Origin: Candidatus Kaiserbacteria bacterium RIFCSPLOWO2_01_FULL_51_21
Lineage (GTDB): Bacteria; Patescibacteriota; Minisyncoccia; Phycocordibacterales; 2-01-FULL-51-21
Direction: 5' to 3'
DNA: 64,000 nt
NCBI GenBank assembly: GCA_001781435.1
Contig: MFLV01000011.1
Span: forward strand, 11,268 to 75,267
Every line of letters begins with the position of its first letter. The first letter of the stretch is position 1. Below, one piece after another: positions 25,188 through 25,415 of this stretch. The translations under genes were made by a program, and so were the position numbers. The notes beneath the pieces are model-generated. The model saw nothing but the letters and a program-made list of their open reading frames with translations. It ran no database searches and had not been told where the DNA came from.

Positions 25188-25259
25188 CCTCTCGTCGTTC
25201 AATGGATAGGATGCTTCCCTCCGAAGGAAGCGATGCAGGTTCGATTCCTGCCGAGAGGA
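25188..25259 (+). tRNA. tRNA-Arg (anticodon CCG)
   Basis: CCTCTCGTCGTTCAATGGATAGGATGCTTCCCTCCGAAGGAAGCGATGCAGGTTCGATTCCTGCCGAGAGGA. Confidence 0.8.
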
Positions 25260-25415
25260 TTATTAACGAAGTAAATAATCCTCGAGAGTCGTGCTGGGAG
25301 CACGACATGCAGGAATCGAAGCCTGTTTGAGATATTTTCGAGCCGAGCGGCGGCGAAGAAAATATCCAAACACGGGTACTGTTCCCGTAGGAAAAGATTC
25401 CTGCCGAGAGGAGAG
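25255..25415 (+). other. tRNA-like remnant ending in a 17-nt duplicate of the tRNA-Arg(CCG) 3' end (att-like direct repeat)
   Basis: Perfect hairpin GAGGATTATTaacgaagtAAATAATCCTC overlaps the tRNA 3' end. Pseudo-arms gtcgtgctgggagcacgac and caggaatcgaagcctg follow, then GATTCCTGCCGAGAGGA repeats at 25396-25412. Confidence 0.45.

Follow-up and report, generated by a model that had tools for sequence, protein, structure and literature searches.

A candidate tRNA-mimicking trailer element downstream of tRNA-Arg(CCG), from a modular family at tRNA 3' flanks in Patescibacteria

The stretch of DNA analysed here, 64,000 nucleotides (nt) of contig MFLV01000011.1 of Candidatus Kaiserbacteria bacterium RIFCSPLOWO2_01_FULL_51_21 and hereafter called the window (coordinates count from its first letter), carries a tRNA-Arg(GCG)-tRNA-Arg(CCG) operon followed by a structured element and the convergent gene rpsT (Table 1). 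The tRNA-Arg(CCG) gene is intact according to ARAGORN, and its last 17 nt, GATTCCTGCCGAGAGGA, recur exactly at the downstream end of the element, as had been observed in a first-pass annotation made from the sequence alone. Just 136 nt of non-coding DNA lie between the two copies, and at two mismatches or fewer the 17-mer has 2 matches in the window against 0.04 expected from shuffles. That annotation had also described the rpsT terminator as following the repeat and the pattern as repeated at tRNA-Ser(TGA), and both points are borne out: the terminator is bidirectional, and the Ser locus carries a 3'-end copy matching at 16 of 17 bases. However, it overlooked an inverted copy of the tRNA at each locus, GCAGGAATCGAA downstream of tRNA-Arg(CCG) and GGTGAGATTCGAACT downstream of tRNA-Ser(TGA). 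Both loci share the same order, which is the tRNA, a short spacer, the antisense copy, a structured stretch of ~75-110 nt and the sense copy. Our preferred reading, to which we assign a probability of roughly one half, is that the element is a trailer RNA that is transcribed, mimics a tRNA and is probably acted on by the enzymes of tRNA processing, and that 25260-25412 is the 3'-trailer domain of the operon, folded as a mimic of the neighbouring tRNA.

When folded as a single sequence, the window segment alone gave a fold z of -7.0 and formed an acceptor-like stem, a hairpin (Hx), a helix (P1) and a three-way junction. In the acceptor-like stem, CCTCGAG meets CGAGAGG of the sense copy through five Watson-Crick pairs and a tandem G.A pair. 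P1 is formed by GCAGGAAUC paired with GAUUCCUGC, rebuilds the T-stem of the tRNA, and is the closing helix of a three-way junction whose other arms are a long hairpin, P2, and a short one, P3; within the antisense copy, GCAGGAATC supplies the 5' strand of P1 and GAA forms junction J1/2. In overall shape, the element presents the acceptor and T-stem of its neighbour, with one hairpin replacing the D and anticodon arms and a structured core replacing the T-loop. Ahead of these parts, the trailer hairpin E/H0 includes the final five tRNA bases in its stem and has a C-GAA-G triloop. Degenerate anticodon-arm and T-arm hairpins had been proposed between the repeats; the anticodon-like hairpin is present as Hx, but the T-arm hairpin CAGG...CCTG lacks conservation among relatives, where CAGG is part of the antisense copy (the P1 5' strand) and CCTG is part of the base of P2. 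The string CAGGaatcgaagCCTG named in that proposal is present at 25310-25325. Neither ARAGORN nor RF00005 made a call within 25260-25415, even at E <= 10, and an anticodon loop and a T-loop are absent there. An acceptor/T-stem mimic with a discriminator position, as expected of a tRNA-like processing signal, is seen in the fold, in the acceptor enrichment of the family and in the P1 recovered by RNAalifold (both below).

Eighty Parcubacteria loci around rpsT were fetched and every tRNA was scanned; the 153 tRNAs counted, all with sequence on both sides, come from 86 Parcubacteria loci. A 12-nt antisense copy (one mismatch at most) lies within 120 nt downstream of 26 of the 153 tRNAs and a 16-nt sense copy within 300 nt downstream of 18, whereas neither was found upstream of any (0/153 for each); both copies follow 16 tRNAs. 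Across the relatives, this is far above chance. The tRNAs concerned include four Arg isoacceptors, Lys, Ser, Gly, Leu and Val, and the copies always match the local tRNA; P1 and acceptor sequences vary by tRNA (Arg, Ser, Gly, Leu, Val, Lys) yet stay complementary. Furthermore, a metagenome scan for an Arg-type T-arm with its antisense copy behind it yielded 110 loci with 103 distinct elements. In 34 of these 103 elements the acceptor-like 5' strand pairs 7/7 with the element's own acceptor, and a control with other acceptors was lower (p = 6e-6). In most cases AG, the commonest dinucleotide at that place, and then a hairpin come after this strand, and hairpins equivalent to Hx are present in most family members.

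The family is also biased towards the tRNA strand. The core folds better on that strand in 50 of 58 elements (p = 1e-8), and among the 103 elements RCGAAGY was counted 54 times on the tRNA strand vs 2 for its complement, and GCGAAGC 17 times vs 0. The broader motif C-GNA-G, especially (G/A)CGAAG(C/U), shows strong enrichment on that strand in these elements (L096-L205), often in hairpin loops, and is found in the window at 25268-25274, 25317-25321 and 25353-25357. GCGAAGC forms an exceptionally stable mini-hairpin in single-stranded DNA. The motif of the core present in the window element, designated type B, has 62 matches in 1.69 Mb, of which 56 have a same-strand tRNA no more than 400 nt upstream of them, and reversed-sequence controls gave 0; the remaining matches are mostly at contig ends or within arrays, and one, in locus L170, is a segmental duplication. 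In L170, a 249-bp segment has a 99% identical duplicate 4.5 kb away without a tRNA (860-1107 and 5344-5592), which begins at the last two tRNA-Arg bases, spans the whole type-B element plus 100 nt, and may be a real segmental duplication or an assembly artefact. The duplication runs 100 nt past this orphan type-B element, which is thus no evidence of autonomous movement.

The type-B core is common to 32 elements and has the order GAAR, P2, RUACYG, P3 with a Y-GUA-R loop, and NGAU. Covariation was measured in a fixed-register alignment of 29 distinct type-B cores. P3 is paired in 98.6% of cells, with 5/5 pairs changing on both sides; the foot of P2 also covaries, and altogether 12/12 tested pairs change on both sides. 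The covariation score was 0.717 against 0.212 in shuffles, was reached by 0 of 500 shuffles, and the signal was lost when the pairing partners were slid. RNAalifold, run on 15 unfitted full-length sequences, recovered P1, P2 and P3. Other elements carry other cores: type A consists of CGAAAGCCGGAG, a stem-loop, CGAGGCGGGGUCGCG, a second stem-loop and YGUGACC; type C is of the GGGGUCGGGAAA type, as at the Ser element of the window; and at least one further core type exists beyond A, B and C. The unrelated cores share one scaffold, and the GAA complementary to U54-U55-C56 is kept in every core type. Rfam searches of the window and five related loci, at gathering and at permissive E-value thresholds, returned tRNAs and noise only; the element has no match in Rfam release 15, and no description of it was found in the open literature, where the papers closest to it deal with theta ribozymes and with group I introns in Patescibacteria tRNAs (see below). 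A family of tRNA-mimicking elements, one of the options offered by the first-pass annotation, is supported by the conserved junctions, the covarying helices and the occurrence only downstream of same-strand tRNAs. The window element is a member of a large, modular and fast-evolving family specific to the tRNA 3' flanks of Patescibacteria, or candidate phyla radiation (CPR) bacteria.

These data bear on two readings in which the segment is decaying DNA. In the one put forward by the first-pass annotation, it is the decayed scar of a tyrosine-integrase element. As at integrase attL/attR sites, there is a direct repeat of the 3' part of the tRNA, from the loop to about the tRNA end, and the site is a hot spot of gain and loss; unlike such sites, the element is only ~150 nt long, has no integrase nearby, contains an extra inverted copy and a covarying interior, and has repeats that are re-specified for each tRNA around an interior that stays constant. 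Thus the direct repeat expected of a scar is present, but integrase remnants and a freely decaying interior are not. The suggested search for integrases gave no integrase Pfam match in 30 large open reading frames (ORFs) of the window, the core is selected for pairing, and an integrase scar predicts neither the antisense copy nor a joint change of sense and antisense copies with each neighbouring tRNA. Conservation of sequence and spacing among relatives, which the annotation itself had held to speak against a scar, was seen in the family. In the other reading, the segment is a decaying tandem tRNA duplicate, a pseudo-tRNA that is both functionless and immobile. Its 5' acceptor-like strand, T-stem 5' strand and 3' end do stand in tRNA order, and in ~10 of 57 elements the tRNA repeat continues into the trailer to give tandem units, as tandem duplication predicts; decay, however, cannot yield the reverse complement of a T-loop, and a paired core with compensatory changes that is common to dozens of lineages contradicts it, which makes this explanation very improbable. 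Taken together, the covariation, invariant junctions, strand bias and strict tRNA linkage rule out both a decaying scar and a decaying duplicate. Recurrent gain and loss at the DNA level nevertheless remains a live component at tRNA 3' flanks, since the repeat usually ends at the tRNA end, close relatives carry different elements at the same tRNA, and relic tRNA ends are found.

The position of the element is consistent with transcription as part of the operon. A promoter-like site upstream of tRNA-Arg(GCG), recognised by consensus match only, is a putative start of a transcription unit containing the element, and the element lies inside the promoter-to-terminator interval, with no further promoter- or terminator-like site between. 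Related units are located between co-oriented tRNAs, for example tRNA-Arg(TCT) and tRNA-Val, and element orientation tracks the tRNA on both strands of the window rather than the direction of replication. The strand bias, the orientation, the promoter-terminator placement and the units between co-oriented tRNAs together lead us to infer that the transcript of the tRNA operon includes the element.

In the mechanism proposed for such a transcript, the second 17-mer would be the 3' strand of the mimic, pairing with the upstream acceptor-like CCUCGAG and with GCAGGAAUC, which comprises the T-stem 5' strand and the T-loop complement; together these would rebuild the acceptor and T-stem helix of tRNA-Arg(CCG), with the T-loop replaced by a conserved three-way junction of P2, GUACUG and P3 with its GUA loop. 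With an acceptor/T minihelix the same as that of the real tRNA, the mimic could be excised from the precursor by end-processing enzymes: cleavage by RNase P would fall near 25279/25280 and 25412 would be the site for RNase Z and the CCA-adding enzyme, which would separate the tRNA, the spacer and the terminator and release a stable tRNA-like RNA of ~133 nt. Given that a tRNA-like acceptor/T helix is displayed, the simplest mechanism is that these three enzymes recognise it, as proposed here by analogy with known systems. Plant mitochondrial t-elements and the mascRNA of MALAT1/MEN-beta are acceptor/T-stem mimics that are cut by RNase P and RNase Z. Like them, the element is a non-tRNA sequence showing an acceptor/T-stem mimic beside another RNA; unlike them, its stems copy the neighbouring tRNA exactly, a large three-way junction stands in for the T-loop, and it is located in a bacterial operon.

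Table 1. Positions of the Arg and Ser elements, their parts and adjoining features in the window
Feature	Position	Strand	Remarks
tRNA-Arg(CCG)	25188-25259	+	ARAGORN and Rfam agree; RF00005 59.3 bits; CCA not encoded
17-mer, first copy, GATTCCTGCCGAGAGGA	25243-25259	+	tRNA-Arg(CCG), T-loop G57 to discriminator A73
Trailer hairpin E/H0, GAGGATTATTAAC-GAA-GTAAATAATCCTC	25255-25283	+	inverted repeat
Acceptor-5'-like strand, CCTCGAG, then AG	25280-25286	+	from single-sequence fold
Hairpin Hx, GTCGTGC-TGGGA-GCACGAC	25288-25306	+	sits where D and anticodon arms would be
Antisense copy, GCAGGAATCGAA	25309-25320	+	complements 25240-25251, tRNA positions 54-65 (T-loop and T-stem 3' strand)
P2 long hairpin, CCTGTTTGAGATATTTTC ... 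GAAAATATCCAAACACGG	25322-25375	+	small inner hairpin at 25342-25354
Junction J2/3, GTACTG	25376-25381	+	family consensus RUACYG; T33, A34, C35 and G37 invariant
P3 short hairpin, TTCC-CGTA-GGAA	25382-25393	+	family form: 4-5 bp stem, Y-GUA-R loop
17-mer, sense copy	25396-25412	+	exact repeat; gives P1 3' strand, acceptor 3' strand and discriminator
Bidirectional intrinsic terminator	25417-25449		serves tRNA operon and convergent rpsT; 5 nt beyond element
rpsT	25448-25711	-	convergent; abuts terminator
Promoter-like site, TGGACA, 17-nt spacer, TAGAGT	24869-24897	+	upstream of tRNA-Arg(GCG); consensus match only
tRNA-Ser(TGA) element	22574-22845	+	sister of Arg element
tRNA-Ser(TGA)	22574-22658	+	
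Palindromic terminator-like hairpin	22663-22696		between tRNA-Ser and its antisense copy
Ser antisense copy, GGTGAGATTCGAACT	22705-22719	+	complements 22637-22651
Ser sense copy of tRNA 3' end	22829-22845	+	16/17 bases match

It should be noted that several observations weigh against a processed trailer RNA. The T-loop, which is normally contacted by RNase P, is absent from the element, and G.U and A.C combinations in the acceptor mimic number 15 vs 11, which shows no clear RNA-type bias. In about half of the family, including the Ser element of the window, a terminator-like hairpin is located between the tRNA and the element and would limit co-transcription. Different cores, or none, are found at identical or near-identical tRNAs of close relatives, and core swapping of this kind is seldom seen in an essential RNA but is characteristic of DNA that is mobile or selfish. 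In most cases, moreover, the repeat stops at the tRNA boundary, and relic tRNA 5' and 3' ends flank some loci.

Turnover of the elements is fast, with core swaps, tandem arrays (L091, L097, L108) and losses among close relatives. The closest relative, L091 (RuvA 74% identical), has an identical tRNA-Arg(CCG) but a type-A core, and at least four tandem type-A units of ~90 nt stand between its tRNA-Arg(GCG) and tRNA-Arg(CCG) (4356-4800). In L093 and L094, tRNA-Arg(CCG) has a different acceptor stem and a homologous type-B core, the sense copy has changed with the tRNA, and relics of window-type tRNA ends flank the whole unit. L005, L006 and L008 have flanks that are 84-97% identical, and the trailer that follows their common tRNA-Arg(GCG) measures 3165, 171 and 943 nt, respectively, and differs in scaffold and core. 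L008 has its spacer, hairpin and 3' junction in common with L103, L113, L155 and L180 but differs from them in the core, and the Arg and Gly elements of L003 are ~90% alike in spacer and core, with arms re-specified for each tRNA. A stem-loop, GCGGAAATTTCTAGCAAGAAATTATCCGT, that follows tRNA-Lys in the window recurs unchanged behind tRNA-Arg in L094, in genomes whose proteins are only ~70% identical. Ten contigs with identical rpsT are all 100% identical over 24881-25460 and hence uninformative on insertion polymorphism. Partial copies of tRNA 5' ends (positions 1 to 13-16, the end of the D-loop) occur 60-140 nt upstream of intact tRNAs, at L094 4604-4617 and L170 715-731 and also in L108, L126, L127, L162, L098, L066 and L124; they are set apart from the tRNA by structured sequence and mirror the 3'-end copies.

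A DNA-level alternative is a small, non-coding mobile cassette that integrates at the T-loop of a tRNA gene and carries a tRNA 3' end of its own, by means of a recombinase provided in trans. The substrate of this recombinase might be a folded single strand with an antisense:sense hairpin that resembles the target duplex. Single-strand exchange predicts the order tRNA, cargo, antisense arm, loop and displaced original 3' end, which is the order observed. Identity is usually limited to the interval from T-loop position 56/57 through 0-8 nt past the discriminator, never reaching upstream of position 56, and the post-tRNA spacer often has its own terminator, distinct from the one after the sense copy. 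The tandem arrays, the identical tRNAs with different elements in relatives, the hypervariable trailers and the relic tRNA ends in L094 are also as a cassette would have them, as is a LAGLIDADG homing-endonuclease ORF that begins exactly at the tRNA-Lys 3' end in L092 (5465-6296) and L093 (5415-6245); the orthologous position in the window holds structured units. Folded single-strand recombination sites are known in the CTX phage attP(+) hairpin, recombined by XerCD, and in integron attC. The element shares with them inverted arms ~90-150 nt apart, strand-specific folding, structure kept over sequence, and arrays at one target, and its arms and strand-biased folding amount to the one-strand imperfect inverted repeat, mimicking a target duplex, that such a site requires; here, however, a tRNA T-loop would take the place of dif or attI as the target. 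Moreover, the loop is a conserved, covarying, junction-rich core and not a variable spacer, and the upstream edge of the copy varies by 0-5 nt, with bulges of 0-4 nt, and marks no fixed crossover point. Arms re-specified per tRNA, as in L003, are unexpected for a fixed att site, and orientation follows the tRNA and not replication. No integrase or transposase was found in the 30 large ORFs of the window or in the 3 ORFs of the extra DNA of L005, and the elements are nearly absent from 2.9 million viral contigs (0 matches for the Arg T-arm with its antisense copy and 1 for the type-A core). We therefore regard a mobile cassette as unlikely, but as an explanation to be taken seriously.

The sole viral-contig match, L206 (IMG/VR UViG_3300033463_005745, 2900-3319), has type-A units, at least two of them in tandem, on a tRNA-shaped scaffold that is based on another T-arm (TTCAAATCCCT), with no tRNA within the fetched stretch. 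Several other identities were considered and rejected. By inspection, the element has no RYYYAAC/GTTRRRY (R''/R') boxes of an integron attC, and the window has no recombinase; terminal arms that differ per tRNA, and copies only downstream of tRNAs, do not fit a miniature inverted-repeat transposable element or a repeat like the repetitive extragenic palindromes; and the antisense copy does not span the discriminator or CCA, as a retroviral-type primer-binding site would. Group I introns have been described in Patescibacteria tRNA genes, where they interrupt the anticodon loop and fit the group I model (PMC13011429). They too are structured RNAs tied to tRNA genes in this phylum, but the element is located outside an intact tRNA and has no RF00028 match.

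The antisense copy complements 12 nt of the real tRNA and only 9 nt of the sense copy, and two competing folds are possibly open to the transcript, with the antisense strand able in the model to pair alternatively with the 3' half of the tRNA. For 25188-25452 the minimum-energy fold is strand-swapped, at -126.3 kcal/mol, and beats the cloverleaf with folded element and terminator, at -113.2 kcal/mol. These values would suit a cis-acting conformational switch, in which the antisense segment competes for the T-arm and 3' strand of the tRNA, the sense copy is a releasing decoy, and the competition sets the share of precursor that matures. Retention of the GAA in all core types is in keeping with such a switch, and so is a compensatory change in the tRNA-Lys units (GGAC/GUCC vs GGAU/AUCC), where the end of a unit pairs with the beginning of the one after it. 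However, the tRNA is transcribed first and is able to fold first, the energy model leaves out tRNA tertiary structure and modifications, and conserved interchangeable cores are superfluous for a simple switch, while many elements have no sense copy at all; we consider a switch improbable.

The interchangeability of the cores raises another alternative, that they are self-cleaving ribozymes of undescribed classes that process tRNA trailers. Different self-cleaving classes replace one another in shared contexts, and structurally unrelated cores with highly conserved junction nucleotides are interchangeable here on one scaffold (L008 vs L103, L113, L155 and L180; the window vs L091). Analogous theta ribozymes, which are minimal ribozymes like that of hepatitis delta virus (HDV), adjoin phage tRNAs and have been proposed, from this position, to process the 3' trailer (PMC10879173). 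Theta ribozymes are likewise structured RNAs immediately 3' of tRNA genes, but they lie no more than ~5 nt from the tRNA and have the HDV double pseudoknot, whereas the element is further off and holds tRNA copies. A scan for the HDV-like/theta fold (nested double pseudoknot of P1, P1.1, P2 and P3) and HDV-like threading yielded only plain, continuous hairpins, and Rfam gave no match to the HDV family, or to any ribozyme family, at E <= 10. Hammerhead and twister were rejected as well, their junction order and sequences being a misfit by eye and Rfam giving no support. Furthermore, the cores start at least 50 nt past the tRNA end, and cleavage there would not make a mature 3' end. A ribozyme is thus a distinctly improbable explanation.

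The Ser element of the window has a core of the GGGGTCGGGAAA type, different from that of the Arg element and found also in L015 and L184. In addition to these two elements, the window has structured units of ~90 nt in post-tRNA spacers at 18371-18497 (-), 24984-25187 (+) and 29657-29830 (+), following tRNA-Arg(TCT), tRNA-Arg(GCG) (two units) and tRNA-Lys (two units). All are of a reduced type-A form, in which the antisense match to the tRNA 3' end is just 4-7 nt. Each unit begins with a UGGGG/A-loop hairpin that takes in the last 3-7 nt of the tRNA, followed by UGCC-RNNC-GSAG, a stem-loop, YGA-NNG-GGGGUCGCR, a second stem-loop with a conserved bulged A, and YGUGACC. The units have no Rfam match. 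A regular expression for the type-A core found 21 copies in 877 kb, 18 of which lie 46-310 nt downstream of a same-strand tRNA.

Other features of the window were observed in passing. A 491-aa ORF without a Pfam match (23405-24880, -) contains four tandem DNA repeats of 126-132 nt at 23679-24186, and differing gene calls beside it in L082, an otherwise identical contig, suggest variation in repeat number. The genes dnaN and dnaA are adjacent on the - strand (ranges given as 44281-47068 and 51981-58423), and the replication origin is probably close. Five kb past them, a TraG/VirB4-like ATPase and a weak, sub-threshold TrbL/VirB6-like match suggest a type IV secretion cluster.

tRNA-like structures, ribozymes adjacent to tRNAs and att repeats in tRNA genes are known kinds of element; the combination seen here, in which interchangeable conserved cores are framed by sense and antisense copies of the 3' half of the neighbouring tRNA, is not among them. 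We tentatively propose, at somewhat less than even odds, that these elements are modular 'shadow tRNAs', an undescribed Patescibacteria system of non-coding cassettes in which the 3' half of the preceding tRNA is copied from both strands and which carry at least four interchangeable core types. They would be either a new RNA layer of tRNA-operon processing or control, in which ribozymes or aptamers of new classes may have a part, or a new kind of mobile element that has no protein and reaches tRNA T-loops via a target-mimicking hairpin. If the elements are RNAs excised by tRNA-processing enzymes, they would provide a case of tRNA-like punctuation in bacteria and add an abundant class of structured RNA to a phylum noted for its minimal genomes. 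If instead they move, they would illustrate how ~150 nt of DNA without a protein gene can target tRNA genes and leave them intact. Either way, the four or more conserved cores are candidates for new ribozymes, aptamers or protein-binding RNAs, and duplicated tRNA 3' ends in CPR genomes should not automatically be annotated as the boundaries of prophages or islands.

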